Source: Octopus sinensis
Taxonomy: Eukaryota
Direction: 5' to 3'
Assembly: GCF_006345805.1 (NCBI RefSeq)
Contig: NC_043009.1
Coordinates: forward strand, 60,698,001-60,762,000
Length of the DNA stretch: 64,000 bases
The position numbers and the translations under genes were made by a program. The notes under the pieces were generated by a model. The model saw nothing but the letters and a program-made list of their open reading frames with translations. It was not told the DNA's origin and did not search any database. Below are positions 2,849-64,000 of the stretch, piece after piece. Every line of letters starts with the position of its first letter. Positions within the stretch are counted from its first letter, which is position 1.

Positions 2849-2972
2849 GATGTACCTGATGTAAGCTATGGGCCATAGACACACATTATGCATTGTTATA
2901 AATCCGTCTAATAAAGGTCCGAAACATATGTACCGCTGAATCCTTGGCATCATGTTTTTATTTTGATTAATT

Positions 2973-3003
<31 letters not shown>

Positions 3004-3228
3004 CATTATTATTATATAAATATATATATATGATCCGGTTCTTGACTGAAGATTGAAGGCTTTGAATGTCCCGTCTGTGTTTTTTGTGTCGTCTTCTAGA
3101 TGTTTCACGTTCTTGTCCCAGTTTGTATTTTTTTCCATTTACATATGCTATTAAGTTAGACATGGCCTGGGCCAATAATGGCCGAAACCTATCAAAGTAT
3201 CAAAGTATATATATATATATATATATAT

Positions 3229-3537
3229 ATCTATACAATATGTTACATTACTCGGTAGTCAAGATAAAACTCTGAGTTTCAGATGCCGAAGTGGAAATCC
3301 ACAACACCATCTCTTCGGTTATCTGGCTATTTGAAAACGTTATGAAAAATTTTTTCATAACGTTTTCAAATAGCCAGATAACCGAAGAGATGGTGTTGTG
3401 GATTTCCACTTCGGCATCTGAAACTCAGAGTTTTATCTTGACTACCGAGTAATGTAACATATTGTATAGATAAATTTCCTCTATTTACATAATATTGAGG
3501 TCTCTTTCTTTCTTTTGTTATCTTACCGTTTTATCAA
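3229..3537. mobile_element. Fold-back element family A (~120-bp arms plus one-sided tail) with hammerhead-like motif; probable Penelope-like pLTR derivative
   Basis: Near-perfect palindrome 3229-3471 centred at ~3350, with a tail to 3537 and (TA)n on both sides. A second copy lies inverted at 16639-16910. Confidence 0.75.
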
Positions 3538-3554
3538 TATATATATATATATAG

Positions 3555-3960
3555 ATAAAATATTATTCGAGACAAAACCACTATTTTGCAAAACAAACAA
3601 GGAAAGACTTAATTAATACATAAAATTTTAATAAATAGTCAAAAAAACCGCCACTACAATCGTTTCTTGTCTTGATCGACAATCTTCAGGTGGACTTCCA
3701 ATAATTCAGTGTCAAATTTTGACACTGAATTATTGGAAGTCCACCTGAAGATTGTCGATCAAGACAAGAAACGATTGTAGTGGCGGTTTTTTTGACTATT
3801 TATTAAAATTTTATGTATTAATTAAGTCTTTCCTTGTTTGTTTTGCAAAATAGTGGTTTTGTCTCGAATAATATTTTATAATTTTTTACTATAAAATCGA
3901 TTTAATCCTAAATCTGATTTTTTCCCTGTAAATTTGGATTTATTCCCTAATATTTATTAT
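3555..3960. mobile_element. Fold-back element family B (~160-bp arms plus tail) with hammerhead ribozyme
   Basis: Palindrome 3555-3879 centred at ~3717, with a tail to 3960 and (TA)n flanks. Related single-arm copies occur at ~31925-32160 and 54074-54262. Confidence 0.8.
3741..3783 (+). ncRNA. Minimal type-I hammerhead ribozyme (mirror copy on minus strand ~3650-3692)
   Basis: ccac CTGAAGA ttgtc-gatcaa-gacaa GAAA cgattg TA gtgg: stem I, core, stem II, near-palindromic stem III and a GUA cleavage triplet. Confidence 0.85.
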
Positions 3961-4013
3961 TATATATATATAGATATATATATATAGATATATAGATATA
4001 GATATAGATATAG

Positions 4014-4050
<37 letters not shown>

Positions 4051-4053
4051 TAC

Positions 4054-4088
<35 letters not shown>

Positions 4089-4199
4089 TGTATGTATGTA
4101 TGTATAAATATGTGTGTTTGTGTGTGTAAAGAATACAGGGGAGGGAATGAGAATCAGAAAGAGTCTCACACACACACACACACACACACATCAAAAAAT

Positions 4200-4576
4200 A
4201 CTTTGATAGAGAAGTAGCAAGTGGAAGTGAGAGGAAGAAAGGAGTGGTAGAATAAACAAACTGGATTCATGATGAGGAGGAGTAGAAAGAGTAGAAGGTG
4301 GTGGTGGGGGAGAGAAGTAAAGCAGTCAGGGTTATAGGTGCCAAAGCAGATTGAATGACGTTGAGGAAGGGGAGGAGGTGAGCACCACTTTGCAGTGATG
4401 ATGGGGGTGGGAAGATAGAGGAGGTGAGCACCATTTTGTGGGTGATGACGTGGGGGGGAGATAAATCGTGACACAGTCGATAGAAGTTATAAGTTCTTGA
4501 TTACTCAGAATATGTATCAGTTTTTCTTCTATGTCTGTGATCACCATACACTGTTTCAAATCCGTCACAGGTGAGT
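4200..4576 (+). promoter_or_regulatory. Candidate promoter / first non-coding exon ending in a splice donor
   Basis: Non-repetitive purine-rich block with two TGACGT sites (4356, 4446) and a consensus donor CAG|GTGAGT at 4570/4571, followed by T-rich intron-like sequence. Confidence 0.4.
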
Positions 4577-4960
4577 TGTATTACAATGGTATAAATATTT
4601 TTTTATTGTCATTCTCTACCTGTGGTTCGTTTGTATGTTTTTTTTGTTGTTTTTTTTTACCTTTTCGTTTCCTTTTCATTCCATCACTTTTGCTAAATCA
4701 GACACTAAAATTACCTTCTTGTTGAAATATCTAAGTTGTAATTTACCTCTATTTTAGATTTTTCTATACTAGCCGTCATATCCTAACCCTAACCCTAACG
4801 GCCCCTACACATTTGGCCCCTTTCTACATTAACAAGCTAAATCATACGAGTAATGGTACTAAGGCTAGTCTCATTGTCTAGGCTCACTGACACACACGCT
4901 TTTCCACCCATACTAGCAATTTCTTCTTATTTAAGAAACCATCATTATTATTATTATTAT

Positions 4961-5500
4961 TGAGTGAGAGAGCAGTTCATGCCATCAAAGTGACACTGGG
5001 GTAAAATATACGAAGCCCAATATACCCATCATGACTACCCGTCTGATAAGGGTACACCAGGCACATGCATCAGAACCATATGTGCGCGACATGGTGATCT
5101 CATATCAAGATAAACAGCACATGACCTTGCAGGTGGGGCCCAGTTAGAATTTTCTTCAGGTTGAGTAGCCCATCCTGCTCAAAAGGTCCCTGAATAAGGG
5201 TTGTTTAAGGATGTTGAAAGAACCACCCATGTTTCCAGAGGTGAATTATTCAAACCCCAAAGAATCCCTCTCAACACATGGCTATGATGCTCCCCCACTA
5301 CTTCTGCTCGTGATCAGAGATGCACATATCGTCAGCCAATAAGGGACATGCTCAACTGGTTAAGGTAAAACAACTGACAAGCAAATCTGTGGTATTGAGC
5401 AGAATATTTGCTGTAGCCCATCTTTTATACCAAGACAAAACAATGTACATGATAACACTTCCAATCAGTTAAGATCAGAAGCCATGAGAGCCAATGCCTG

Positions 5501-5502
<2 letters not shown>
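4961..5502. repeat. Probable interspersed element of unknown class embedded in (TAA)n
   Basis: A higher-GC ~540-bp block bounded sharply by (ATT)n on both sides, with no confident ORF. Confidence 0.4.
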
Positions 5503-5536
<34 letters not shown>

Positions 5537-5551
5537 TATTATTATTATTGT

Positions 5552-5708
5552 TGGTGGTGGTATTCCATCCGCCTTCATGTTGTGAGTTCAAATTCCAACT
5601 TTCATTCTTTCAGAGTCAAAAAAATAAGTACCAGTTGAGTACTGGGGGTCGATGTAATTGACTATACCCCTCCCCAAAATTTTAGGCTTTGTGTCTATAG
5701 TAGAAAAA

Positions 5709-5763
<55 letters not shown>

Positions 5764-6110
5764 GTGGTGGTATTCCGTCTGCCTTCATGTTCTGAGTTCA
5801 AATTCCAACTTTCATCCTTTCAGAGTAAATAAAATAAGTACCAGTTGAGTACTGGGGGTCGATGTAATTGACTATACCCCTCCCCAAAATTTTAGGCCTT
5901 GTGTCTATAGTAGAAAAATATTATTATATTATTATTATTATTATTATTATTATTGGTGGTGGTATTCCGTCCGCCTTCATGTTCTGAGTTCAAATTCCAA
6001 CTTTCATCCTTTCAGAGTCAATAAAATAAGTACTAGTTGAGTACTGTGGGTCGATGTAATTGACTATACCTCTCCCCAAAATTTTAGGCCTTGTGTCTAT
6101 AGTAGAAAAA

Positions 6111-6153
<43 letters not shown>

Positions 6154-6310
6154 GGTGGTGGTATTCCGTCCGCCTTTGTGTTCTGAGTTCAAATTCCAAC
6201 TTTCATCCTTTCAGAGTCAATAAAATAAGTACCAGTTGAGTACTGGCGGTCGATGTAATTGACTATACTCCTCCCCCAAATTTTAGGCCTTGTGTCTATA
6301 GTAGAAAAAT
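5552..6310 (+). repeat. Tandem array of 4 truncated SINE bodies separated by (TTA)n
   Basis: The unit GGTGGTATTCC...GAGTTCAAATTCCAACTTTCATCC...ATAGTAGAAAAATA occurs four times. Confidence 0.9.
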
Positions 6311-6376
6311 ATTATTATTATTATTATTATTATTATATTATAATTATTATTATTACCATTATTATTATCATTATTA

Positions 6377-6413
<37 letters not shown>

Positions 6414-6421
6414 CATTATCA

Positions 6422-6459
<38 letters not shown>

Positions 6460-6496
6460 ATTATTATTATTACCATTATTATTATCATTATTATTA

Positions 6497-6527
<31 letters not shown>

Positions 6528-6547
6528 CATTATCATCATTATTATTA

Positions 6548-6578
<31 letters not shown>

Positions 6579-6606
6579 CATTATCATCATTATTATTATT
6601 ATTATT
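6311..6606. repeat. (ATT/ATC)n microsatellite
   Basis: Read directly from the sequence; it produces the poly-Ile ORF artefacts. Confidence 0.95.
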
Positions 6607-7390
6607 CAGTAGTTTTATTTTTATAGCGTGCTTTCACTTCACTACCGAGCGCAGCTCAGTGTGCCTTGGGTATGTGCTGTGATTTGTTGTGATGCTCTGA
6701 TGGTTATTGTATGGAAAGTGTTCTGCGTAGGATGTGTGCAGTGCCAAGTAGTGCAATTTTCTGTATGTTATATGAGTTTGTAAGTGCTGGTGTTTTTGTT
6801 ATGTATTTGTCTGAATATTTTTTTATCATGCCTAATGCACTTACTATGATAGGAATTGTTTCTGTTTTCAGATTCCACATTCTAGTTACCTCTATTTCAT
6901 GGTCTTTGTATTTTGAGAGTTTCTCCATTTCTTTTAGAGACACGTTGTCATCAGCCGGTATTGATACATCAATTAGAAAGCATTTTTTTCTTCATGATCT
7001 CTGACAACTATATCTGGTCTGTTGGCCTTAATTTCTCTATCTGTGTGTATCGGCATATCCCAGAGTATGGTTGCTTTCTCGTTTTCTGTGACCTTTTCTG
7101 GTGTGTGCCTATACCATCTTTTTTCTGTTGTTATTCCATAATGTTGGCATAGCTTCCAATGTATGTAGGTTCCAACTCTGTCATGTCTGTGAATATATTC
7201 CTTCTTAGCCAGGACTGGGCAGCTAGAGATAATATGATTTATTGTTTCTTGTCCATCTCCACATATTCTGCAGTTACTTGTAATATTCTTTTCATTACAT
7301 GTTTTTGGTAATTTCTGGGGGGAGGCTTTGGTCTTGTGCTGCAATTAAAAATCCCTCTGTTTCTGCTTTGAGTCCTGAGCTTCTCAACCA
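6606..7390 (-). mobile_element. R4/Dong-clade non-LTR retrotransposon 3' fragment (CCHC + restriction-like endonuclease)
   Basis: Translates to CRICGDGQETINHIISSC, HDRV, ANRPDIVV, EKLSKYKD, IPIIVSALG and IQKIALLGTAHILRRTL*, then a 3'UTR. Flanked by (TAA)n, the known Dong target. Confidence 0.9.
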
Positions 7391-7413
7391 ATTATTATTA
7401 TTATTATTATTAC

Positions 7414-7461
<48 letters not shown>

Positions 7462-7480
7462 CATTATTATTATTATTATT

Positions 7481-7699
7481 AGTCAGCAAGCTGGCAGAAT
7501 CATTAAGCTCACCAGACAAAATGCTTACCAGCTTTTCATCCATCCTTACATTCTGTGTTCAAATTCCACTGAGGTCGACTTTGCCTGTCATCCTTTCGGG
7601 GTCGATAAATTAAGTACCAATCAAGTACTAGGGTTGATGTGATTGATTATTCCCCACCCACCCACAAATTCCAGGCCTTGTGCCAATGGTAGAAAGGAT
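7481..7699 (+). mobile_element. tRNA-derived SINE (Meta-domain-like core), representative of many copies (7835, 8225, 9600, 9870, 11110, 11315, 34875, 57915, etc.)
   Basis: Contains AGCTGGCAGAAT (A box), GTTCAAATTCC (B box) and GACTTTGCCTTTCATCCTTTCGGGGTCGATAAATTAAGTACC. Confidence 0.8.
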
Positions 7700-7710
7700 T
7701 ATTATTATTA

Positions 7711-7768
<58 letters not shown>

Positions 7769-8049
7769 CATCATCATCATCATTATTCGCAGTAGTAGTA
7801 GTAGTAGTAGTAGTAGAAATAATAGCAGTAGTAAGGTGGCACCTGGCAGAATCATTAGCATGCCGGGCAAAATGCTTAGTGGCATTTCGTCCATCCTTAC
7901 ATTCTGAGTTCAAATTCCAGTTGGGCACAAGAGATGATGTAACTGGCTTAACCTCTTCCCCAAAACTGCTGGCTTTGTGCCAAAATTTGAAATCATCATC
8001 ATTATTATTATTATTATTATTACTATTATTATTATTATTATTATTATTG

Positions 8050-8198
8050 CCTTTGGCACAGCTTCTAACGCTGGAGGTGTACTACAGTGTCAGCTGTTCA
8101 CTACCAGTGAACTAAGGTAACATCTCTTATTTTTCGAGCACCTTCTGGAGTATTTGAGCAGTTCCAAGCAGTGCTGTTTTCTGCAAGTGATCGACCCT
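8050..8198 (-). mobile_element. Second R4/Dong family, extreme 3' end
   Basis: Minus strand reads RVDHLQKTALLGTAQILQKVLEK*, followed by a different 3'UTR ending in (TAA)n. Confidence 0.75.
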
Positions 8199-8452
8199 TA
8201 TATTATTGTTGTTGTTGTTGTTACGGTGGTGAGCTGGCTGAATCGGTAGCACGCTTGACAAAATGCTTAGCGGTATTTCACCCGTCGCTATGTTTTGAGT
8301 TCAAATTCTGTTGAGGTTGACTTTGCCTTTCGTCCTTTCAGGATTGAATTAAGTACCAGTGAAATAGTGGGGACGATGTTATTGACTAGTCCCCTTCCCT
8401 CAAAATTGAGGCCTTGTGCCTCTAGTAGAAAGGATTATTATTATTATTATTA

Positions 8453-8485
<33 letters not shown>

Positions 8486-8507
8486 CATTATTATTATTAT
8501 CATTATT

Positions 8508-9470
8508 ATTCAGTAGTTTTATTTTTATAACATGCTTTCACTTTACTACTGAGCGCAGCTCTGTGTATCTTGGGTATGTGCTGTGGTTTGGTTTGATGCT
8601 CTGATGGTTGCTGTATTGAAAGTGTTCTGCGTAGGATGTGTGCAGTGCCAAGTAGTGCAATTTTCTGTATGTTATGTATAAATTTGTAAGTCCTGGTGTT
8701 TATATTATGTATTTGTCTGAATATTTTTTATCATACCTAATGCACCTACTATGATAGGAATTGTTTCTGTTTTTAGATTCCACATTCGAGTTACCTCTAT
8801 TTCATGGTCTTTGTATTTTGAAAGTTTCTCCATTTCTTTTAGAGACACGTTGTCATCTGCTGGTATTGATACATCAATTAGAAAGCATTTTTTTCTTCAT
8901 GATCTCTGACAACTATATCTGGTCTGTTGGCCTTAATTTCTCTATCTGTGTGTATTGGCATATCCCAGAGTATGGTTGCTTTCTCATTTTCTGTGACCTT
9001 TTCTGGTGTGTGCCTATACCATCTTTTTTCTGTTGTTATTCCATAGTGTTGGTATAGCTTCCAGTGTATGTAGGTCCCAACTCTGTCATGTCTATAAATA
9101 TATTCCTTCTTAGCCAGGACTGGGCAGCCAGAGATAATATGATTTATTGTTTCTTGTCCATCTCCACATATTCTGCAGTAACTTGTTATGTTTCTTTTCA
9201 TTATGTGTTTTTGGTAATTTCTGGTCTTGTGGTCTTGTGCTGCAATTAAAAATCCTTCAATCTCTGCTTTGAGTCCTGAGCTTCTCAACCATTGCTGGGA
9301 TTTTTCTCTTTCTATTTCTTTTGCATTTAGTTTAGCTCAGTATTTGCCATGAAGCCCAGTATTTGCCATGAAGCCCAGTATTTGCCTTTCATTCTTGCCA
9401 TTGTTTTATCATGGTCCATTGCTGCTCTAGTTTTAGTTTGGATTTCATTTGTTTTATAGTTTTTGTTGTT
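8508..9470 (-). mobile_element. R4/Dong-clade retrotransposon 3' fragment, second copy
   Basis: Near-identical to 6606-7390 but extends further 5' (QQWLRSSGLKAE). The 3' end abuts (TAA)n. Confidence 0.9.
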
Positions 9471-9489
9471 TCTTCTTCTTCTTCTTCTT

Positions 9490-9520
<31 letters not shown>

Positions 9521-9543
9521 GTATGTCCTTAAAGTTATTATCA

Positions 9544-9585
<42 letters not shown>

Positions 9586-10711
9586 TATTATTATTATTAA
9601 GGTGGTGAGCTGACAGAATCAATAGTATATGAGACAAAATGCTTTCTGGAATATTGTCTCTATTCTACATTTTGATATGAAATTCCATCGCAGTTGACTT
9701 TGCCTTCTATCCTTTCAGGTTCGATAGAATATGTACCAATCGAGTACTGAATTCTATGTAATCAGCTTACTCCTTCCCTTAACCTGCTGGCCTTGTGCCA
9801 AAATTCAAAACCATTTGGAGAGAAATGAGTTGGCAAAAGGTGTCACATGGTATTTGGGTTCAACTTTTAAAGGTGGTAAGCTGACAGAATCGTTAGAATG
9901 CCAGACAAAATGCTTAGTGGCATTTCGTTTGTCTTCAGGTTTTAAGTTCAAATTCCACTGAGGTCAACTTTGCCTTTCATTCTTTCAGGGTCAATCAAAT
10001 AAGTACCCGTTCAGTACTGGGGTCAATGTAATTGACTAGTCCCCTCCTCCAAAATTTCAGGCCTTGTGCCTATAGTGGAAAGGATTATTATTATTATTTT
10101 CATTATCATCTTCTTTCAATTCTGTTATCATCTCTTACCGAGTGTCTTCATGACACCTAGGGCAGAGAAACGCATTGTATACATTGGAATGCCATTAAAA
10201 TAAACACACCAGATTGTTCATTTACAAAGTCAGGTGAGAGAGAAAGTGGGGAAGAAAGACAGAGAGAAAAATAAAAAAGTAAATAAAGAAAATAAAGGGT
10301 GGGAAAAAGTGAAAGAAAATTTACAGTGACTGTACTCTTCTTAGTGTGTGTGACAGTCATTTGCACTTCCTACATGGATGGCAAACCTATTATCATCACT
10401 ATTCAAACCACACCTGAAGCTGAATATAAATACCTGGACATGAGTTGTGCTATTTACACATTCTATTTACACATTCTACTCCTGCCAGGATCAACATTCT
10501 CTTTCATCCTTTTAATTTCAACAAAATAAGGGACCAGTCTAGTAAGTATCCCCTTCAGTCACAAATGACTATGGGATTACACCTAAAAAGTTTCCCTCCA
10601 ATGCACATGCCCACTGAAAGTTGTTTGTGGAAGACCAGCATTTACCCATGCATACCAGTCTCCCTTCTCTACTATCGTTGTTCAAGGGAAAGGCAAACAC
10701 AAACTATTGTT

Positions 10712-11091
10712 ATTATTGCCTCCACCTTAGCGAAGGCAGGGGTATTGTTTTCAGTCATGTTTGTTTGTATGTCTGTTTGTCCATGGACAAGACATCTCAA
10801 GAACCACTGGATGGATTCGGATGAAACTTTCAGGGATGTTTGGCCTTGTGACTGACACAAACTGATTAGATTTTGGGACCAATCTGGTACTGAACAAGGA
10901 TTCTGGATTATTTTTCTTGTGTTTTTACTTAATTTTTGTGAGCAGTCAGGATCATTTTTAGTATTCTCATTTGTGAGAGAAGTCGAGTTTATTTCAGATA
11001 TCCTCGTTTTAAAAATCATCATCTCTGGCTAATCATTGAGAGGACATTGGTGTTGCCTTGGCAGAGGTTTGCACTCTCTTAGTGCTCTTGT
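10712..11091 (+). mobile_element. Helentron-associated (HINE/DINE-like) non-autonomous element
   Basis: Begins TTATTGCCTCCACC, has an internal TGTT/TGTC tract, an inverted subterminal CCTTGGCAGAGG, a 3' GCACT...AGTGC hairpin and TT flanks. Confidence 0.6.
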
Positions 11092-11814
11092 TATTACTAC
11101 TGTTACTAGTCAGCACACTGAGCAACATGCTTAGCGGTGTTTTGTCTGCTGCTACGTTCTGAGTTCAAATTCCACTGAGGTTGACTTTGCCTTTCGTTCT
11201 TTTGGGGGTCAATAAATTAAGTACTAGTGAAACATAGGGGTCGATGTAATCGACTAGTCCCTGCCCCCAAAATTTCAGGCCTTGTGCCTTTAGTAGAAAG
11301 GACTATTATTAAGGCTGCGAGCTGGCAGAATTGTTAGCACACTGGGCGAAATGCTTACAGTATTTCGTCTGCCACTATGTTCTGAGTTCAAATTCCACCA
11401 AGGTTGACTATAACTGTCATCCTTTCAGGGTCGATAAATTAAGTACCAGTGAAATACTGGGATCCATATAATCAATTTATCCCCTCTATTATAAAGATGG
11501 AAACCCTAATGCACCAAACAAAATGCTTGGCATCATTTCGTCTATCTTCATGCTCTGAGTCCAAACTCCACCAAGGTCAATAAAATAAGTACCAGCTGAG
11601 CATTGGGGTGCAGGGGAGGGGCATGTAGCCAACTTACCCTCTCCACTGAAATTGCTGGCCTTGTGCCAAAGTTCAAAACACTCATCATCTTCATCATTAT
11701 TAGTGGTAGTGGTGGCGGTGGTGGTGGTGGTGGTGGTGGTGGTTGCAGTGGTAGTGGTTGTAGTAGTGGTGGTGGTAGTAGTAGTAGCATGTGTTTGTGT
11801 GTGTGTGTGTAAAT

Positions 11815-11847
<33 letters not shown>

Positions 11848-12851
11848 ATATGAAGACACGTGGCTAAGTGGTTCAGGTATTCGGCAAAAGATCACAAGGT
11901 TATGAGTTCAACTCCCAGCAGTGCACTATGTCCTTGAGCAAGACACTTTATTTTATGTTGCTTCAATCCACTCAACTGATGAAAATGATTTACATTATTT
12001 ACATTTGACGGATATTTGTCCTCATCTTATTAATAGTTATCGCCAAGCTAACATGGCAATTCAGGAAAATAGGACGAAAGCTGCCATTGATTATATCAGT
12101 CAAATGGCTGAAACAAATAAAAGAATTAAAGAATATATATATATAACTGTAAGTTTCAAGGATCAAGGTGTAGGAAGAAAGTGAGTTTCAAGCAATCTGT
12201 AGAAAATATTAAAAAATGCCTTTCAGGAGCAATAGTCAGTGGGGCAGAAGGTTGTAGATTTTTTCCATATTGAAAGACAATAAGCTGAAAAAAATTACAT
12301 TATATGTTATGGTTGGCAGGCAGGGTTGCTAGGTATGGGAATAAAAATCCAAGAGTTAAAGAATGGAATGGATACAATCCAGGTTACTTACGTTTGTTGT
12401 CAACAACAAACAAGATGAGGACAAATATCCGTCAAATGTAAATAATGCAAATAATGTAAATAATTCCTCATCTCTAAAATATAGAACTGTATTCATGGAT
12501 CTATTTAAAATCCTCCCCAAAATAATTATGTTCCACACAAAAGTCTCATAAACAAAATATTTCCATATTCCGGTACAAATGACAACACAAAAGTCTACTG
12601 GCCCATGCTCTATATTGAAACCAGAAACCACCTAATATATATATTTATATAAAGGAGGATAAGATCTTTATTTAAAATACTGATCATATCAAGTGGCTAG
12701 CATGGGAATAAAAACCTTATAGGTAATAATTGTTATTAGAATTATAATTAAAGGTATCTAAAAGATACCACCATGCTAGAGATAGCAGTCAAAACTTGAC
12801 TTTAAAACCACATCATGTATTCATACAGCACCAGAAGAAAAAATGGTGTAT

Positions 12852-13025
12852 AGGCGCAGGAGTGGCTGTGTGGTAAGTAGCTTGCTTACCAACCACATGA
12901 TTCCGGGTTCAGTCCCACTGCATGGCACATTGGGCAAGTGTCTTCTACTATAGCCTCGGGCCGACCAAAGCCTTGTGAGTGGATTTAGTAGACGGAAACT
13001 GAAAGAAGCCCGTCGTATATATGTA

Positions 13026-13067
<42 letters not shown>

Positions 13068-13310
13068 ATATATGTATGTATGTATGTGTATGTTTATAGT
13101 GTCTGTGTTTGTCCCCCCAATATCACTTAACAACCAATGCTGGTGTGTTTACGTCCCTGTAACTTAGCAGTTCAGCAAAAGAGACTGATAGAATAAGTAC
13201 TAGGCTTACAAAGAATAAGTCCTGAGGTCGATTTGCTCAACTAAAGGCGGTGCTCCAGCATGGCTGCAGTCAAATGACTGAAACAAGTAAAAGAGTAAAA
13301 GAGTAAAGAG
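12852..13310 (+). mobile_element. tRNA-derived SINE with internal (TA)n and (AGTAAAAG)n tail; copies at 30060-30700(-), 47405, 54290(-), 56076, 58500
   Basis: Head GGCGCAGGAGTGGCTGTGTGGTAAG...GGTTCAGTCCC, then TTGGGCAAGTGTCTTC, and tail TGACTGAAACAAGTAAAAGAG. Confidence 0.8.
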
Positions 13311-13366
13311 TATATATATATTTCTAATTATGTATTGTGTATATCCCACTGATGAGGTAGTGTATA

Positions 13367-14377
13367 CAGTGGAGGGAAATGAATATTCGTACATGTCAAA
13401 ATTCTTTATTTATTTAATTTCTAATGAACATAAATGGGACATACCAATAAATTATAGTATCTAATAATTATAGTAACTAAGGAATTTATATAATTATAGT
13501 AACTAAGGAATTTATATACAATTATAAATATTTAGAGGTGACAAAAGTATTTGTACAGAATAAATTTATGATTTTCTATGCCACAAAATACTGTTTAAGA
13601 TGAATTTTTTTTACTAGAACTTTCTCATTTGTTCCAATAATCTTATCAGTTGTCATTTTTAAGTGTCAAAACGCTAGCTTCTTCATTCAGCACTGAGACA
13701 ACATAAAGTAGTATTGTAATAATGGCGAAAAATAAAGAACTCACAAATTCAGTAAAAAACTTAATTATTGAACAGTGGAAAGCAGGTAAAAGTTACAGGA
13801 AAATATCAGAGTTCCATTTTCTACCATATCTTCATTTATTCAAAGATATAAAAAATCGGATACTGTTGAAAACAGAATAAGATCCGGTGCACCATGCAAG
13901 ATTTCCCCTAGATCTTTAAGAAAAATGAAGCAAAGAATCGAAAAAATGCAATGATCACCAGAAAGGAGTTGCAAGAAGATTTGTTAGCTTCAGGGACTAG
14001 TGTTACACTACGAACAATCAGCAATGAACTTCATAGGAATGAACTGAAGTCAAGCTCTCCTAGAAAAACTCCGCTGTTGATTAAAGGCATAGAGATGCCC
14101 ATTTAAAATTTGTTTATGAACATAAAGATAAATCTGATACATTCTGGAAAAATGTTCTATGGACAGACGAGTCGAAAATTGAATTGTTTGGACAAAATTC
14201 ACGTAGCCATGTTTGGAGGAAAGATGGTACCACCTATTCGCCGAAAAACACAATTCCTACCGTAAAGTTTGGAGGTGGCAACATCATGGTGTGGGGTGTG
14301 TTTCTCTGCAAATGGTACTGGCAATTTACACGTGATAGATGGTAAAATCAATGCAGACATGTACCAAAATATTTCGA
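13367..14377 (+). mobile_element. Tc1-family DNA transposon, 5' half with transposase pseudogene
   Basis: TA|CAGTGG terminus. From ATG 13722: MAKNKELTNSVKNLII..., RKTPLL, WKNVLWTDESKIELFG, PTVKFGGGNIMVWG. Frameshifted and truncated. Confidence 0.9.
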
Positions 14378-14454
14378 ACAAGAGTTAAAGAATGGAGTGG
14401 ATACAATCCAGGTTACTTGTGTTTCATAGTGAGTAGAACCTTGGAAATGGTAAA

Positions 14455-15022
14455 TATCGAAGTGAGGTGTATACCACAATCTACTCTTCAGGCCAAGGGT
14501 ATCTTGATTAAATGAAGTTTACTATGATGTTAGGAGGCCATGTTAACATACAGGGAATTCTAATGAAATCCTCCATATGTGAACATGGGTCTCCTAATGA
14601 CAATGCAAACTTCATTTAATCAAGGAATCTTTGGCCTGAAGAATAGCCTGCAGAAAAAACCTCACTTGGATATTTACCACTTCCGAAGTTCCGCTCACTA
14701 TGAAATATGTGTAGCACAGATCTTATCTACTCCATTAACTCTTGGATTTGTGTGTGTATACATATGTATACATACCAGCCACCTGTGTCATCAAAGATTA
14801 GATCAGTCTTATTAACGGTATTAGTGATAAAGAATGTGACATCTGTTGAGTACAGTGTGAGAAATCCTTTATACACAGTATTGATGAGGGTGAAATATTG
14901 GATTTGTTTTTTTATGGCTGAAACGTTTTGTAGCAAATCATTTCATTCAAAAAGTCAATGTATGTATGCCTGTGTACTTGTCTATGTGTGTGTGTGTATG
15001 CATAAATATTTGTGTATGTATG

Positions 15023-15089
<67 letters not shown>

Positions 15090-15246
15090 TTACATATACT
15101 TATATATATATGAACAGCTGGTAATGATGTGTTAAAACAATTGTAGTGACATGTCCCACTATATGATAGCACCTGGTACCCAATATTGAAAGAAGAGCTT
15201 GGAAATCACAGTATAAGTTTTTTTTTCTTATCCAAATTATTTCAGC

Positions 15247-15247
<1 letters not shown>
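14455..15247 (+). repeat. Direct duplication, copy 1 (copy 2 at 17960-19006)
   Basis: AAGTGAGGTGTATACC...CTTATCCAAATTATT occurs twice, with scattered substitutions and different internal microsatellite length. Confidence 0.95.
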
Positions 15248-15280
<33 letters not shown>

Positions 15281-15347
15281 TCATCATCATTTAATGTCCT
15301 TCCATGCTGACATGGGTTGGATGGTTTGACATATACTCACATATATT

Positions 15348-15540
15348 TAATTATAATTAAGGGTACCAAAGAGGTTCCACCATGCCAGAAATAGTAGTCA
15401 AAACTGACTCTGAAACCACTTCATGTATTCATTTATCTTTTCTCCTGTGCTATATGAATACATGATGTAGTTTTAGAATCAGTTTTGACTGCTATTTCTG
15501 GCATGGTAGTACTTCTTTGGTACCCTTAATTATAATTATA
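15348..15540. repeat. Diverged fold-back (~85-bp arms); single-arm relative at ~12740-12825
   Basis: AATTATAATTAAGGGTACCAAAG... pairs with ...CTTTGGTACCCTTAATTATAATT. Confidence 0.8.
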
Positions 15541-15761
15541 TTATTATATCACGTGATCACATGACCGACCAGACCATCAGATGTTGTTACACATCGCTGG
15601 TCACAATGCGTTTGCATTGTTTTAGCCTTCGAATGACGCTACCCCACAATCCTATGACCGCAAGTCCACTGCCCTAACCACTAGGCCATTGCGCCTCCAC
15701 ATATTATTATATATATATGATAATCATTACCTATATGGTTGTTTTCCTTTTACCTTCGTCA

Positions 15762-15836
15762 AAGAAATACATGGGCCTTGCAGAAGTTAATTTCAAGGCC
15801 AGATTCAATAATCACACCTTGAGCTTCAGACACTGA
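15762..15836 (+). pseudogene. Penelope-like element GIY-YIG endonuclease fragment
   Basis: Translates to KKYMGLAEVNFKARFNNHTLSFRH*, matching the YIG-x-FK-x-R-x-NNH-x-SFR pattern of Neptune-type Penelope-like elements. Confidence 0.7.
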
Positions 15837-16341
15837 TATATATATATATATATATATACGTGTGTGTGTGTGTGTGTGTGCATATGGGTATATGCATATA
15901 TAGACGTATTTTACTCATATTGCTTATTTTTTATACTTCTTTACAGATTTTTCTGTATTTTGCTTTTAGCCCTGTTTTTTTCTTGTGCATGTGCGTATAC
16001 GGACGTGTGCATGAGCCTTTTTTGTGCGCGTGTGAGTGTGAGCGTGTATGCAGGTATGTATATATTTTATTTGATGAATGTGTAGGTGACCATGTGTGTG
16101 TTTCAAGTGAGGATGGATGAGTATATACTTATAGACGCATGTATGTGGGTGTGCGGATGCACGTGTATGTGTATGGACATGCGTGCTTACGCGAATACTA
16201 TGAACATTTTTACTCCCTTACCTTTACTCCCTCCCCTCACTTAGCGGTCATTCTAATAGCTCTTTGTCTTAATATCGGTCAATCACACTGTAATTTCCCT
16301 TTGTTTAACGGTCATTTACATAGCATTTTTTCCGATGGCCG

Positions 16342-16402
16342 GATAACTGAAGAGATGGCGGCATGGATTTCCACCCAAACATCCAAAACTCGGAGTTTTA
16401 TC
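16342..16402 (+). ncRNA. Decayed hammerhead-like motif, diverged relative of family A
   Basis: gataa CTGAAGA gatg...catc c AAAA ctc g gag TT ttatc. Confidence 0.55.
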
Positions 16403-16571
16403 ATTGCTACCGAATAATTGCCACATATTATATTTACAGATATATATACTTGGTATAATTATATTTTATAATTATATTTATAAAATTATATGTTTTGTTT
16501 TAATTTTTACCTTAATTGGTTTTTACATGATAACTTTGATAAATCCTAGAGATTTTATCCCCTGGTTATAA

Positions 16572-16634
<63 letters not shown>

Positions 16635-16638
16635 TATA

Positions 16639-16910
16639 TTGATAAAACGGTAAGATAACAAAAGAAAGAAAGAGACCTCAATATTATGTAAATAGAGGAA
16701 ATTTATCTATAAAATAATATGTTACATTACTCGATAGTCAAGATAAAACTCTGAGTTTCAGATGCCGAAGTGGAAATCCACAACACCATCTCTTCGGTGT
16801 TAGAAATAGCCAGATAACCGAAGAGATGGTGTTGTGGATTTCCACTTCGGCATCTGAAACTCAGAGTTTTATCTTGACTATCGAGTAATGTAACATATTA
16901 TTGTATAGAT
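16639..16910. mobile_element. Fold-back family A, second copy (tail on left)
   Basis: Reverse-complement match to 3229-3537 with a different centre; (TA)n flanks. Confidence 0.85.
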
Positions 16911-16920
16911 ATATATATAA

Positions 16921-17955
16921 ATAGATGAGTGTATTTTTACCTTGTTAACAATTAACACAGAAAAAATAAATAAATAGTTACCAGGGTAGCAAAAATCTCA
17001 CAAGTAAAGATGTTGTAACTCCTTGTTTATAAAGGTAGAAACTTCGTGTTTACGTTGAATATTTTGAATAATATATGAATAAATAAATGGAGTTTAAAGC
17101 AGGTGTAATCAAATATTTTACTTTCGACACATGTTTTGAAAATTCCACTGATACTATTCAAAAGAATAAATGGTATAAACAATGCAATCTTCTCCTCAGG
17201 AAAGTGTAAAAAGCGAAACTCATCAATAAGACATTTTAGCAAAAAATGATGGATTTGTATAGCGATAGACAGAACGCTATTAATATTGTTTAAAAAAAAC
17301 GTTATATGATATAACGTCATAAGTAGCTAACAGAAAGAGTTGGGATACCAATAGTGAATGTTAAATATAAAGGAAATTAAAGTTTAAATTATATATAATG
17401 ATAGAGACTATTTATATGCACTAAATGTATGTTTTTGTCAATGCTTACATCTGTATGCTCGTTCTATAACCGTGTTTACTAGAGTATTTTTAGAAAAAAT
17501 AATGAAAAATAGCTCAGAATTGCAGAGAAGACAGAATTCCTTGCCTTTGTCATATGGTATCAAAATTGAGAGAATCAACCATTCTAAATGAAATTGTTCA
17601 TTTAGTGCATATAAGTAGTCTCTATCATTATATATAATTTAAACTTTAATTTCCTTTATATTTAACATTCACTATTAATATCCCTACTCGTTCTGTTAGC
17701 TACTTATGACGTTATATCATATAACGTTTTTTTAAACAATATTAATAGCGTTCTGTCTATCGCTATACAAATCCATCATTTTTTGCTAAAATGTCTTATT
17801 GATGAGTTTCGCTTTTTACACTTTCCTGAGGAGAAGATTGCATTGTTTATACCATTTATTCTTTTGAATAGTATCAGTGGAATTTTCAAAACATGTGTCG
17901 AAAGTAAAAATATTTGATTACACCTGCGTTAAACTCCATTTATTTATTCATATAT
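16921..17955. mobile_element. Large fold-back (~350-bp arms, ~170-bp spacer) with hammerhead motif and Penelope-like ORF end
   Basis: Arms ~17080-17428 and ~17599-17955. Hammerhead at 17820-17905: actttc CTGAGGA gaagatt...aattttc AAAA catgtg TC gaaagt. The spacer minus strand reads LVNTVIERAYRCKH*QKHTFSAYK*. Confidence 0.75.
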
Positions 17956-17959
17956 ATAT

Positions 17960-18587
17960 TATCCAAGTGAGGTGTATACCATAAATCTACTCTTCAGGCC
18001 AAGGGTATCTTGATTGAATGAAGTTTACTATGATGTTAGGAGGCCATGTTAACATACAGGGAATTCTAATGAAATCCTCCATGTGTGAACATGGGTCTCC
18101 TAATGACAATGCAAACTTCATTTAATCAAGGAATCTTTGGCCTGAAGAATAGCCTGCAGAAAAAACCTCACTTGGATATTTACCCCTTCCAAAGTTCCGC
18201 TCACACTATGAAATAAGTGTAGCACAGATCTTATCTACTCCATTAACTCTTGGATTTGTGTGTGTATACGTATGTATACATACCAGCCACCTGTGTCATC
18301 AAAGATTAGATCAGTTTTATTAACGGAATTAGTGATAAAGAATGTGACATCTGTTGAGTAGAGCATGAGAAATCCTTTATACACCGTATTGATAAGGGTG
18401 AAATATTGGATTTGTTTTTTTATGGCTGAAACATTTTGTAGCAAATCATTTCATGCAAAAAGTCAATGTATGTATGCCTGTGTACTTGTCTATGTGTGTG
18501 AATATGTGTGCGTGTGTGTGTGCATGTGTGTGTGTATGCAGAATATTGTGTGTATGTATATATGCATATATATATATATGTATATAT

Positions 18588-23385: not shown

Positions 23386-23650
23386 TGTACGGTGGTGGGA
23401 CGATAGAATGGTTGTATACTGTCAATTTAACGTGACAGTAGGGGATTACACCACCACTGTTTAGCCCTAGGAAGCATCGACGCCTCGTGATGGCTTCGAC
23501 ACACATTTTTTCCTGTGTCCTTAAATAATATATAAGGACACAGGAAAAAATGTGTCGAGCCATCAGGAGGCATCAATGCTTCCTAGTGCTAAACAGCGGT
23601 GGTGTAATCCCCTTCTGTCACATTAAATTGACAGTATACAACCATTCTAT
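23386..23650. repeat. Fold-back (~120-bp arms) ending in (TA)n, no clear ribozyme
   Basis: ATAGAATGGTTGTATACTGTCAATTTAA...CCTGTGTCCTTA pairs with TAAGGACACAGG...TTAAATTGACAGTATACAACCATTCTAT. Confidence 0.85.
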
Positions 23651-32239: not shown

Positions 32240-33685
32240 AGAGCAATAAAGATTCAAGTTAATTTAAAAGATTTACTTGAATATGGTACCTAACTTAGAT
32301 GCACAAAAAAAACTATACTGATTTAACAATACAGAATGTGGGGTGATTATAAGCGAGAAAGAAGCAACAAGAATGGATAGGTTTTTATCCATTCTTGTTG
32401 CTTCTTTCTCGCGTATATATATATATATATATATATATACATACATATAATGTATATATACACACACACATATACACACACACACTCACACACACACACA
32501 CACACACAAACTATGTGTGACGATAAAGTCTTTGTGTTGAAGTCGAGGGTCACCAATTGTAGCGGGAGATATTGATTAAGTAAACAATATTATAATGATG
32601 TCAAAGTCAGCAGTTGCAGCGATTAAAAATGTGTTATTATAATTGCATTCTGTAGGATGTGAAAGGTGAACAATGCATGAACTTTTAAGAAAGTATTTAT
32701 TTACCTGAAAAATACTTTACCTCGATGGGCAGGTTTTAACGTCTGAGAGCATGCGAAAAAAAGTTAGATGTGGTAAAATTTTGTTTTTTATTTTTGCATA
32801 GTTTGGCGTACACAAATTGTTAGTAGTTATCCACAGATAGCGATAGAATGATGTTGTAAGAGAACAGAATTAGAGCTAGAGAGAGTTGTAGGGTGTTGTC
32901 TCAAAGTTGCTGACAGCAAACTTCATTTCTCCCTCTGACCAAGGTTCTAGCAGATCAGCCAGACTTCGTTGTCACCAAAGTGACTACTTGGTTGAGTCGT
33001 CACCGACTGTAACTATCTGATTTTTGCTTGGGGTGTACTTGCTTATATAACTATCCAGAAGGATAAGATATATCATTGAGAACAATAGATTTAGTTGGTG
33101 GTCTTGTTATCTCTATTCTAGCTTTTGGTGAAGTAGAAAAGGCTAGTAAGGGTCAAGTGCTGAAGACATTATTTCGACCTAGCTAAAGGCATCTGGAAAA
33201 TGTAAAATTGCTGTCAGAGAAGAACGATTGTTCTGTTGCAGTGAAGGGAGAGGAGAGAAAAGAGAGTAATTCAGTGAAGGAGAAGTATTGAGAGTAATAG
33301 CCATGACTGAGAGGGAGTGAGAGAGAGTAATAGCAATGAGAGAGAGGAAGTGGCAAAGAGAGTGTTTTGTATCTTCTATTGTCATAATCAACTATAATAA
33401 TACTTTTGTGTATTTCTCCATCACAACATATGAGTGAGAAAGGAAGGGGTGATCCACCGATGGAAGTGGGATTGTGAAAAGTCAGCGGTGAAACAAAAAT
33501 CAAACAGTGTTTCAACTCTGTGTGAGTATGTGTGTATGTATGTAAAAGGAAAAAAAGTGAATGTTGTGTGTGTATGTGTATGTTTGTGTTAAACATATTT
33601 CTATATTTGAGTGAGTGCATATGTGTTTGAGTATGTTTATTTAGAAAGATACATAGAAAATAGAGTTACATACACATGCACATTT

Positions 33686-47964: not shown

Positions 47965-48164
47965 TATATATATATATATATATAAACCACCAAGTAAGTT
48001 AGGGGTTGTGGATCCAACCCACTAAGGGATAATATTTATCCAATATACTGTTGGTATAATACCCAAATTATTAATACACAAGTGTTTTCAATTGCAATGC
48101 AATAAACTTACTTATTTTATTAAATGGGTGAAGGTAAAGAAATATTTTATCATTAATTTGTATT

Positions 48165-48467
48165 ACAAATAAGAAGATAGAGAAACACATTAGTTGGTTT
48201 ATCAGCTTTTAGGATATTAGAATGTTGACTTATTTATTTATCAAAATGACAACCATAACATATATACATATAGTATATTATTCAATGCATATAAGATAAG
48301 AATACAAGTAGTTATTAAAAAAAACATTAATATAAATTGTTAAAATCATCTAACAATTTATGTTGTTGTATGTTATTAAGGTTGTCGTTTTGTTAAATAA
48401 ATAAGTCAACGTTCTAATCTCCTAAAGCTGATATACCGTCTAATGTGTTTCTCCATTTTCTTATTTG

Positions 48468-48470
<3 letters not shown>
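48165..48470. repeat. Diverged fold-back (~100-bp arms) with left tail to ~47985, in (TA)n
   Basis: TACAAATAAGAA...GTTGACTTATTTATTTA pairs with TAAATAAATAAGTCAAC...TTCTTATTTGTA. Confidence 0.75.
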
Positions 48471-48498
<28 letters not shown>

Positions 48499-48510
48499 TT
48501 TATATATATA

Positions 48511-52142: not shown

Positions 52143-52276
52143 GTCTATCTATCCAGGCTCACACTAGGTAAAAAGTTGGAAATTGTTTTGGTGGCCCATA
52201 ATACTCCATGGATCCTAAGCAAGGCATGTGTAAAATTTGAATGAAATTATTTGGGTAGTTCTCAAGTTTTAGTGAT

Positions 52277-52338
<62 letters not shown>

Positions 52339-53259
52339 AGAATGTGGGTGTGTCTGTCTCTTTATCTATGAGTGAGTGTGTGTGTGTGTGTGTGTCGTGT
52401 GCGTCACTAAAACTCGAGAACTACCCAAACGATTTCATTCAAACTTTACACCTGTTTTACTTAAGGATCCATGGGTACCTATGTTTTCTATGGGGCTTTT
52501 TCATGAGCAGCCCTCAAACATCTCCTCCTTATTGAAGATTAAACAGTGTGATTTCTTTTGGGGTTTTTTTCCCCTCTTTTATAACTTTGTTAGTCTTGTT
52601 TACACACAAAACCCTCACAACAACAACACACTCACATACAAACACACACATTCTTTGCTTTGCCCTGTACTGTCCATAATGTTTTTCTTCATGTGGTTTA
52701 ATAAAGAAATCATTATTATTATTATCATCATCATCATCATCATCATCAATGCCAACATTGATTATAATGATTATTATTACATAAACGTAAAATTTAGCCT
52801 TGTGAAAAATTGATTAATTCACTGACGATAAAATCTCAGTGTTGTTGGCTGGATGGTTTTCCACATTTCCATATAAATATATACATTAGCACACGCATGT
52901 GTATAAATGCATTTAATATGCATGTAATATATACATACATAGATGGCGGACATTAAACGATGACTATGATGACATACATAAGCATGTGTGTGTGTGTGAG
53001 TAGGCTGACTGACAACGATTGATTGAATGTTGTTAATTATTGAAATAGACATGGTAATCAATTGTATTAACTGTGATGCTTGGTGCAGCGGTGGGCGGGG
53101 ACTAAAGTGAAGGACAGTTTGTTTCCATTCTTTATTTCTTTGCTCAGTTGTCTATTTCCTTGTATCACAGCCAAATTACATTCATATAGTGTTGTTTGGT
53201 TATGTTGATGTTTTTTCCCTCCTAGATGAAATGCCTTTCCGTAAATGTGCATGTTTTAC

Positions 53260-54058
53260 TGGGCGAAATGCTGAGCGGTATTTCGTCTGCCGTTACGTTC
53301 TGAGTTCAAATTCCACCAAGGTCGACTTTGCCTTTCGTCTTTTCGGGATCGATAAATTAAGTACTAGTTATGCACTGGGGTCGATGTAATCGACTTAATC
53401 CGTTCGTCTGTCCTTGTTTGTCCTCTCTGTGTTTAGCCCCTTGTGGGTAGTAAACAAATAGGTATTTCGTCTACTGTTACGTTCTGAGTTCAAATTCCAC
53501 CAAGGTCGACTTTGCCTTTCATCCTTTCAGGGTCGATAACTTAAGTACCAGTTACACACTGAAGTCGATGTAATCAACTTAATCCCTTTGTCTTTGTTTG
53601 TCCCCTCTGTGTTTAACCCCTTGTGGGTAATAAAGAAACAGTTACGTTCTGAGTTCAAATTCCGCCGAGGTCAACTTTGCCTTTCATCTTCTCAGGATCG
53701 ATAAATTAAGTACCAGTTATGCACTGGGGTCGATGTAATCGACTTAATCCGTTTGTCTGTCCTTGTTTGTCCCCTCTATGTTTAGCCCCTTGTGGGTAAT
53801 AAAGAAGCAGTTACATTCTGAGTTCAAATTCCACCGAGGTCAACTTTGCCTTTCATCCTTTCAGGATCGATAAATTAAGTACCAGTTATGCACTGGGATC
53901 GATGTAATCGACTTAATCCATTCGTCTGGCCTTGTTTGTCCCCTCTATGTTTAGCCCCTTGTGGGTAATAAAGAAACAGTTACGTTCTGAGTTCAAATTC
54001 CACCGAGGTCGACTTGGCCTTTCATCTTTTCGGAGTCAATAAATTAAGTACCAGTTAT
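53260..54058 (+). repeat. Tandem array of ~5 SINE bodies (~170-185-bp unit)
   Basis: GTTACGTTCTGAGTTCAAATTCC...CCCCTTGTGGGTAATAAAGAAACA is repeated head-to-tail. Confidence 0.9.
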
Positions 54059-54073
54059 GGAAGATATTTAAAT

Positions 54074-54262
54074 CACCTGAAGAATGACTGTAACCCGAAA
54101 TTTTAAGAATTGGACAGCCATGAAACGATCGTAGTGTTATACTAATTATCTTTTTTTAATAATTTTGATATATATTTAAAATAATATAAATTAATTATCT
54201 TATGTATTGGCTTGAGTTTTTCATTGTATGATTTGCCTAATAGTGGTTTTGTCTCTAATTTA
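54074..54262 (+). mobile_element. Family B relative with long-stem-II hammerhead (54074-54136)
   Basis: cac CTGAAGA atgactgt...acagccat GAAA cgatcg TA gtg, with downstream TAGTGGTTTTGTCTC and then (TA)n. Confidence 0.75.
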
Positions 54263-63783: not shown

Positions 63784-64000
63784 TTATTCACTTGACCGGT
63801 TTCACTTTTTGAGAAAAAGATTGTCAAAAGTAACATGTAAAAGCTTTGTCGTATTAGGTACTGGTTGTCACAAAATATTACAATACATATATACATTCTT
63901 TGATAATAATAAGAACATGTTCTTATTATAACACAACAAAGCTTTTACATGTTACTTTTGACAATCTTTTTCTAAAAAGGTGAAACCGCTCAAGTGAATA
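63784..64000. repeat. Fold-back running off window end with hammerhead 3' half
   Basis: TATTCACTTGACCGGTTTCAC...AAAAGCTTTGT pairs with ACAAAGCTTTT...GTGAAACCGCTCAAGTGAATA. The outward strand reads GAAA ccgg TC. Confidence 0.7.

Follow-up and report, generated by a model that had tools for sequence, protein, structure and literature searches.

The question raised by this locus is how a short palindromic repeat comes to carry the same sequence differences on both of its arms. The window, i.e. the whole stretch of 64,000 nucleotides (nt) from Octopus sinensis that was analysed (contig NC_043009.1, positions 60,698,001 to 60,762,000, forward strand), contains two such palindromes of a repeat termed family A. 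The original prediction held that the differences were mutations specific to each copy and that each palindrome was either built anew from one template at insertion, by snap-back or twin priming, or homogenised afterwards, rather than being a miniature inverted-repeat transposable element (MITE) with fixed terminal inverted repeats. Genome-wide comparisons indicated that each palindrome is a pair of 5′-truncated copies of a Penelope-like element (PLE) joined head to head and that the mirrored differences are alleles inherited from the source copy rather than mutations acquired by the inserted one. Element positions were counted backwards from the last base of a tail present on one arm (position 0), with the end of the tail-less arm at −67. 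The features of the two copies are as follows.

3228-3472: perfect palindrome of copy 1, with an arm of 122 and a spacer of 1.
3228..3349, minus strand: tail-less arm of copy 1, element −188 to −67, followed by (TA)n.
3350..3539, plus strand: tailed arm of copy 1, element −190 to 0, with 100% identity to the natural full-length copy L067.
3473..3539, plus strand: tail of copy 1, 67 nt, on one arm only, followed by (TA)n.
16637..16798, minus strand: tailed arm of copy 2, element −158 to 0, 96.9% identical to L067, with a T allele and a 3-nt insertion.
16637..16703, minus strand: tail of copy 2, 67 nt, on one arm only.
16704-16911: imperfect palindrome of copy 2, with an exact arm of 86 and an asymmetric centre, unlike that of copy 1.
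16799..16803, no strand: junction of copy 2, the five letters GTTAG, a continuation of neither arm.
16804..16911, plus strand: tail-less arm of copy 2, element −171 to −67, followed by (TA)n; its 5′ end lies 13 nt beyond that of the tailed arm.

The copies lie in opposite orientations and are alike in having 67 family bases on one side before the (TA)n, while the other arm runs directly into (TA)n. The mirrored letters were present as described (CTCGGTAGTC/GACTACCGAG in copy 1 and CTCGATAGTC/GACTATCGAG in copy 2), as was the extra TAA/TTA, which is the 3-nt insertion, on both arms of copy 2. A single substitution in copy 2 was unmirrored (16712 versus 16903). The turn-around points also differed, the centre of copy 1 being a spacer of 1 and that of copy 2 a joint of ends at −158 and −171 through GTTAG. 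The differences were not, however, specific to the copies, as an exact 27-mer with the allele of copy 2 was detected at 538 genomic places. Judged by its T allele and 3-nt insertion, the tailed arm of copy 2 belongs to an older subfamily.

Family A is almost certainly the 3′ end of a young Hydra-clade PLE of ~2.6 kilobases (kb), and this 3′ end would constitute a pseudo-long terminal repeat (pseudo-LTR) with a hammerhead-like motif. When the tailed arm of copy 1 was used as a genome query, 40/40 scored places matched at 100% (the best 40 of 461 candidates), and 30/30 loci listed had the same end base in (TA)n and variable 5′ ends, most of which reached into one open reading frame (ORF). In copy L067, a body of 2590 nt was accompanied by an upstream repeat of 91 nt and by an inverted arm, while L227 had an open 708-amino-acid ORF from the first Met, encoding a reverse transcriptase (RT) plus a GIY-YIG endonuclease domain at the C terminus. 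This protein (P0001) contains RMRWKAFF, SDKTKN, CSCRNKELC, CGLC and CPH, and YKDD and YVG were also seen. The available text of PMC8557442 lists RWK, DKT, CxCX5C, CxxC and CxH motifs, a C-terminal endonuclease, a length of <3 kb and (TA)n as Hydra-clade features; all five motifs and the endonuclease position were found in P0001, the unit was 2590 nt long and its ends ran into TA repeats. Membership in Naiad/Chlamys was ruled out, as it needs an N-terminal GIY-YIG domain. Other PLE hallmarks were also present, namely, 5′ truncation, partial tandems or pseudo-LTRs and an inverted truncated copy (L067, L187, L188, L220 and L227). A homologue search returned 835 homologues of ~700 amino acids for the ORF.

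Three side observations concern other loci. Locus L220 (G000:C22:28394500-28404400) holds two or more full units in tandem, along with a partial one; all of its assembled units are frame-broken, and it is a candidate source locus. In L115 (1111-1530), L130 (1572-1943) and L157 (1596-1756), element positions −171 to −182 were joined to body positions +136 to +146, and the body sequence TATGAAAAA is complementary to the −190 region; these joints could be due to a template jump on a short (~310-nt) or circular RNA. A 638-amino-acid open frame near the family A copy in L038 (G000:C11:52850350-52856350, minus strand) belongs to an unrelated element of the long interspersed element (LINE) type, with endonuclease and RT motifs recognized by eye.

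Across the genome, loci were collected by four selections: a tailed query, a query for the copy 2 junction, the tail-less pattern (the first 90 of 271 places, in contig order) and the allele of copy 2. The 155 head-to-head pairs detected collapsed to 127, 8 of which were cut by the edge of the stretch. A tailed arm was joined to a tail-less arm in 116 of the 119 pairs with both ends seen, and two tail-less arms were never joined (0 pairs). The same combination was observed in 12/12 pairs of the allele-picked set, which had been chosen blind to tails. A head-to-head partner was present for 75 of the 90 fetched tail-less ends, with 3 of the remaining 15 running off the stretch edge. Exact 32-mer counts gave 590 tailed and 271 tail-less ends in the genome, which are lower bounds for the young subfamily.

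Mapping of the turn-around points, as had been proposed, yielded 112 distinct centres in 123 pairs; recurrent centres were few and were seen up to 5 times. Arm lengths ranged from ~60 to 2480 nt, reaching into the RT ORF, and loops were up to 2 kb. The correlation between truncations was tested without the junction-biased loci L070-L099, L001, L002 and four compound pairs, leaving 96 pairs. The paired 5′ ends were within 20 nt of each other in 40/96 pairs (permutation mean of 8.1, maximum of 18 in 20,000) and, where both arms exceeded 230 nt, in 12/50 (permutation mean of 1.4, maximum of 7). Of the pairs differing by >50 nt (47/96), 28 had the tailed arm as the longer one and 19 the tail-less arm; those differing by no more than 50 nt (49/96) were split 18/12/19, with the tail-less arm longer in 19. 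Added letters were observed at 26/71 young joints, and microhomology of at least 2 nt at 25/45 young joints without added letters (null, 18%). Arm ends (n = 192) accumulated at −160 to −199 (52 ends), with 2 at −200 to −209 and 0 at −210 to −239. On either strand, the arm starting at the flank reads antisense from a fixed 3′ site, in the manner of a first-strand complementary DNA (cDNA) primed from the flank.

Twin priming is the probable mechanism and fits these data best. Reverse transcription would be primed from each end of a cut (TA)n target, starting at the element end (position 0) on one side and 67 nt inside the element on the other. The GIY-YIG domain would cut both target strands, and two RT active sites, as in the dimer predicted for an anole PLE, would start at the two sites. 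The 3′ ends of the cDNAs would then anneal by microhomology and be filled in. We infer that first strands from 0 and −67, primed at opposite target ends and joined in this way, would account for every pair class. A single RNA molecule may often serve as template for both cDNAs, with synthesis ending close to the 5′ end of that RNA and giving rise to near-perfect palindromes. The exclusive use of two sites, together with the correlated stops, suggests one RNA molecule in many events; that this was the case for most pairs has about an even chance. The sharp edge in arm ends near −200 suggests that a transcript starts there, a reading that also draws on the pseudo-LTR holding the transcription start site in Penelope and Chlamys-3 (PMC8557442). 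A transcript starting near −200 would then yield short pairs such as copies 1 and 2 whenever its 5′ pseudo-LTR is the site of priming. A broader proposal can be entertained tentatively, with slightly less than even confidence: one RT dimer on one RNA, with two starts 67 nt apart, would be the default PLE route, every complete insertion would be a one-tailed head-to-head pair and priming on the 5′ pseudo-LTR would mass-produce MITE-like perfect hairpins.

An alternative is snap-back, in which the cDNA folds at its 3′ end and copies itself and the second arm is trimmed at −67 by the endonuclease. This route accounts for the near-symmetric pairs (49/96 within 50 nt) and for microhomology at the centres, and in the available text of PMC8557442 the tail is attributed to an intermediate being resolved by the endonuclease. 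A copy of a tailed cDNA cannot, however, exceed its template, while the tail-less arm was the longer in 19/47 asymmetric and 19/49 near-symmetric pairs, copy 2 among them, and a tail cannot arise by fold-back from a tail-less cDNA. Snap-back is thus excluded for at least 19 pairs and disfavoured for copy 2. Moreover, mirrored private differences in young copies were not clearly richer in symmetric pairs (8/10,590 columns) than in asymmetric ones (5/11,951). Snap-back is, therefore, unlikely, and of the two routes originally offered, twin priming fits best while simple snap-back fails as a general route (tail-less arm >50 nt longer in 19/47).

Self-priming on antisense RNA, as put forward for rotifer Penelope elements, is similarly improbable. 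A 3′ fold-back would prime synthesis and the resulting hairpin would be integrated; this proposal was made for head-to-head palindromic junctions (PMC3846280) and derives both arms from one molecule. It gives no account of two fixed ends, separated by 67 nt and each confined to one arm, in pairs where either arm can be the longer. Loops extend to 2 kb, and in vitro the PLE RT works on sense RNA with primers of target DNA (PMC11167929). The counts favour twin priming over self-priming or snap-back.

Whether mirrored differences reflect events at insertion or afterwards was examined from the alleles. Arms readable at both sites fell into four haplotypes: 41 with the T allele and the insertion, 152 with C and no insertion, 7 with C and the insertion and 1 with T and no insertion. 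The T allele thus travels with the 3-nt insertion, and both mark the older subfamily. Variants were counted in 118 pairs with ~24,900 shared columns, after removal of 9/127 pairs with <20 shared columns and of columns close to a gap, an AT-rich repeat or the end of an arm. Of the mirrored differences, 70 were shared, 9 were rare and 17 were private within the set of pairs, as against 19 shared, 26 rare and 82 private among differences on one arm. At the 14 columns with an allele in at least three loci, the allele was on both arms in 62 cases and on one arm in 19 (10.8 and 121.3 expected under independence), in line with the proposal that the palindrome is built anew from one source at insertion. 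The independence null ignores subfamily bursts, so the excess shows a common source locus or period and not a common molecule. Of the 17 mirrored private differences, 4 were checked genome-wide; they were found at 10, 7, 3 and 3 places, and in every case another insertion was among them. The third matches of two rare alleles do not come from duplicated contigs of one locus, as the flanks differ. RNA editing of the template was likewise rejected for the mirrored changes, with no A>G excess (1/17 private, 3/9 rare). Nearest-neighbour counts were used in place of an arm tree, as only ~90 columns with few variants were available, and were weak: among 206 arms, the partner was strictly nearest for 17 and tied for 102, and another arm was nearer for 87.

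The arms of older copies differed at 43/2221 columns (1.9%), compared with 2.3% between separate copies of the same haplotype, and those of young copies at 26/7349 columns (0.35%), compared with 0.48% between separate copies. As source alleles are mirrored, private differences mostly are not and older arms are nearly as diverged as separate copies, the structure was very likely built at insertion without later homogenisation. Homogenisation of the arms after insertion, by gene conversion or hairpin repair, would be consistent with partner arms being slightly closer than separate copies at both ages and with the small residue of mirrored rare differences; it is nonetheless very unlikely given that 82/99 private differences were one-armed (17 being mirrored), that a recurrent change at −111 was on one arm only in 6/6 older two-armed copies and that the difference between arms rose fivefold from young to old copies. 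That part of the original prediction is, therefore, not sustained.

Fold-back chimeras of reads or assembly artefacts are more improbable still. Copy 1 and its neighbour (family B, below) are both 100% palindromes, as an artefact would produce, and the centre of copy 1 itself was absent among the joints listed from other runs (15 of 210). The palindrome stops at the element ends, however, with unrelated flanks, a one-sided tail and diverged arms in older copies. Head-to-head joints of family A at several other points (e.g., 3326-3368 and 3312-3409) were present in contigs from 4 other runs of 3 studies, one of which may stem from the source sample. Short (200-320 nt) palindromic copies in TA-rich sites and the few recurring centres would suit a classical MITE, with terminal inverted repeats that are fixed; this reading can be dismissed, in agreement with the original prediction, in view of the variable centres (112/123), arms extending into the RT ORF, an identical joint with the tail on opposite arms (−161/−169 and −169/−161) and no column separating the two arm kinds (51 tested, smallest p of 0.26).

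Several observations weigh against the reading of these pairs as twin-primed PLE insertions made mostly from one RNA. Two tails were joined in 3/119 pairs, and the 47/96 strongly asymmetric pairs are uninformative on one versus two RNAs. A few mirrored differences were still private or nearly so, as snap-back would allow, and two of the four differences checked genome-wide were in one other place only. The one-arm differences of young copies (0.35%) may partly be assembly error. In 4 older loci (L089, L137, L141 and L144), the two arms carried different alleles at −94, with both directions of discordance represented, so the use of one RNA is not universal; copying from two RNAs, copying from two pseudo-LTRs within one RNA and a hot spot of mutation are the candidate causes. 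A fifth such locus, L149, was an alignment artefact, and CpG decay was ruled out as the cause, the C in question not being the CpG one. The in vitro support comes, by analogy, from a Poseidon-clade element whose start sites are inside the ORF, while those here would lie before it. For the identity of the element, a Pfam search gave a GIY-YIG hit below threshold (E of 0.03) and no match for the whole ORF, and a PDB sequence search with the ORF found no relative.

The pseudo-LTR carries the following putative ribozyme motif.

3376..3438, plus strand: hammerhead-like motif of type I, putative, element −163 to −101, mirrored on the other arm.

Its layout comprises stem I (AGATAA/TTATCT), a core of CCGAAGA...GAAA and a stem III with a 1-nt loop; the core deviates at two places, position 4 being a C and GAAA being preceded by one additional base. 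The hammerhead descriptor gave 1 match in 20 shuffled control windows. An Rfam scan found no hammerhead match and only sub-threshold matches to microRNA hairpins, of which that of copy 1 to mir-9 scored 58.3 bits (gathering threshold, 58.6). MicroRNA identity was rejected, these matches being by-products of the palindrome. Short copies are prone to misannotation as MITEs or microRNA hairpins, and hairpin copies of this kind are a likely source of double-stranded RNA.

Further features of the window relate to family A or to other fold-backs.

16282..16433, plus strand: older degenerate piece of the family A 3′ end, 76%.
15755..15835, plus strand: fragment of the element ORF, endonuclease part, 85% at the DNA level, tblastn E of 5e-9.
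3555-3879 (tail to ~3960): family B, another head-to-head palindrome that is perfect, lying inside the (TA)n end of copy 1.

Family A elements and neighbouring repeats nest within one another's (TA)n ends, and the left flank of copy 1 (2850-3190) is a high-copy repeat also found beside copy L002 (88%). The hammerhead core of family B (3745) is canonical and minimal, and one of its arms bears a tail of ~80 nt. Counting by exact anchor, which misses mutated partner arms, detected 8 distinct tailed plus tail-less pairs, 2 pairs with one end unclassed and none of any other kind. Its long copies are retrozyme-like, consisting of tandem repeats with a period of ~320 nt and no long ORF in the stretch seen. 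A head-to-head pair of another family (17067-17960, 97.5%, loop of ~170 nt) is likely to be another PLE, as its loop region gave a weak tblastn match to the P0001 C terminus (E of 0.01). Fold-backs with arms 76-91% alike (14422-14705, 15341-15544, 23403-23650, 32348-32417, 48135-48502, 52202-52477 and 63785-64000) are probably an age series of similar insertions. A repeat resembling a short interspersed element, 150-250 nt long, occurs in tandem and dispersed copies (5517-6352, 53229-54092 and elsewhere).

The element class is already known, and for PLEs so are truncated copies in inverted orientation, junctions that form palindromes and tails at one side. The nearest named family is Hydra-1_Obim (Craig et al. 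2021, PMC8557442), which P0001 resembles along its length as judged by eye against the supplement of that paper. The two share a length of <3 kb, a single ORF, a C-terminal GIY-YIG domain, the motifs, a (TA)n target and, close to the 3′ end, a hammerhead (putative in family A) of similar layout whose stem III has a loop of 1 nt. The protein and hammerhead sequences are distinct by eye, pointing to a separate family, and the hammerhead-like core of family A deviates at two places. Hydra-1_Obim is, moreover, listed in the available material as "no pLTR", whereas family A has abundant tandem and inverted repeats, and the tail is 67 nt in family A versus the 30-40 nt described for PLEs (PMC8557442).

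Penelope, Poseidon and Naiad elements likewise have an inverted pseudo-LTR and a tail at one end, with a head-to-head truncated copy, partial tandems and palindromic junctions (PMC3846280, PMC8557442). These descriptions are qualitative ("often," "optionally") in the available text, with no counts of one-tail pairing, correlated truncation or allele sharing, and the formation of tandem and inverted repeats is named there as an unsolved part of PLE transposition (PMC8557442). Literature searches, covering few subscription papers, found no such counts and no twin-priming model for PLEs. The hundreds of near-identical insertions of this young family make PLE repeat formation countable, in terms of one tail per pair, correlated stops, either arm being longer and mirrored alleles. 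In vitro, a PLE protein cuts and extends both strands, with two start sites that bound the genomic tail and a predicted dimer (PMC11167929). That element, PAc (Poseidon, Anolis), shares an AT-rich target with family A and would also share a tail-defining pair of RT start sites and the cutting and extension of both strands; it differs in clade and in having start sites inside the ORF, and its inverted genomic structures were left unexplained in the available text (PMC11167929). If true, default twin priming would tie this pair of start sites to the inverted-repeat architecture of PLEs.

Twin priming is named for LINE-1 (L1) in bioRxiv 10.1101/2024.12.14.628481. The L1 process is similar in that cDNA is primed from both target ends, the two products being joined in inverse orientation. 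The second primer in L1 starts at variable internal sites, and a minority of insertions acquire a 5′ inversion that does not overlap. In family A, by contrast, both starts would be fixed near the 3′ end, so that each arm repeats the sequence of the other, and a partner is present for most tail-less ends.

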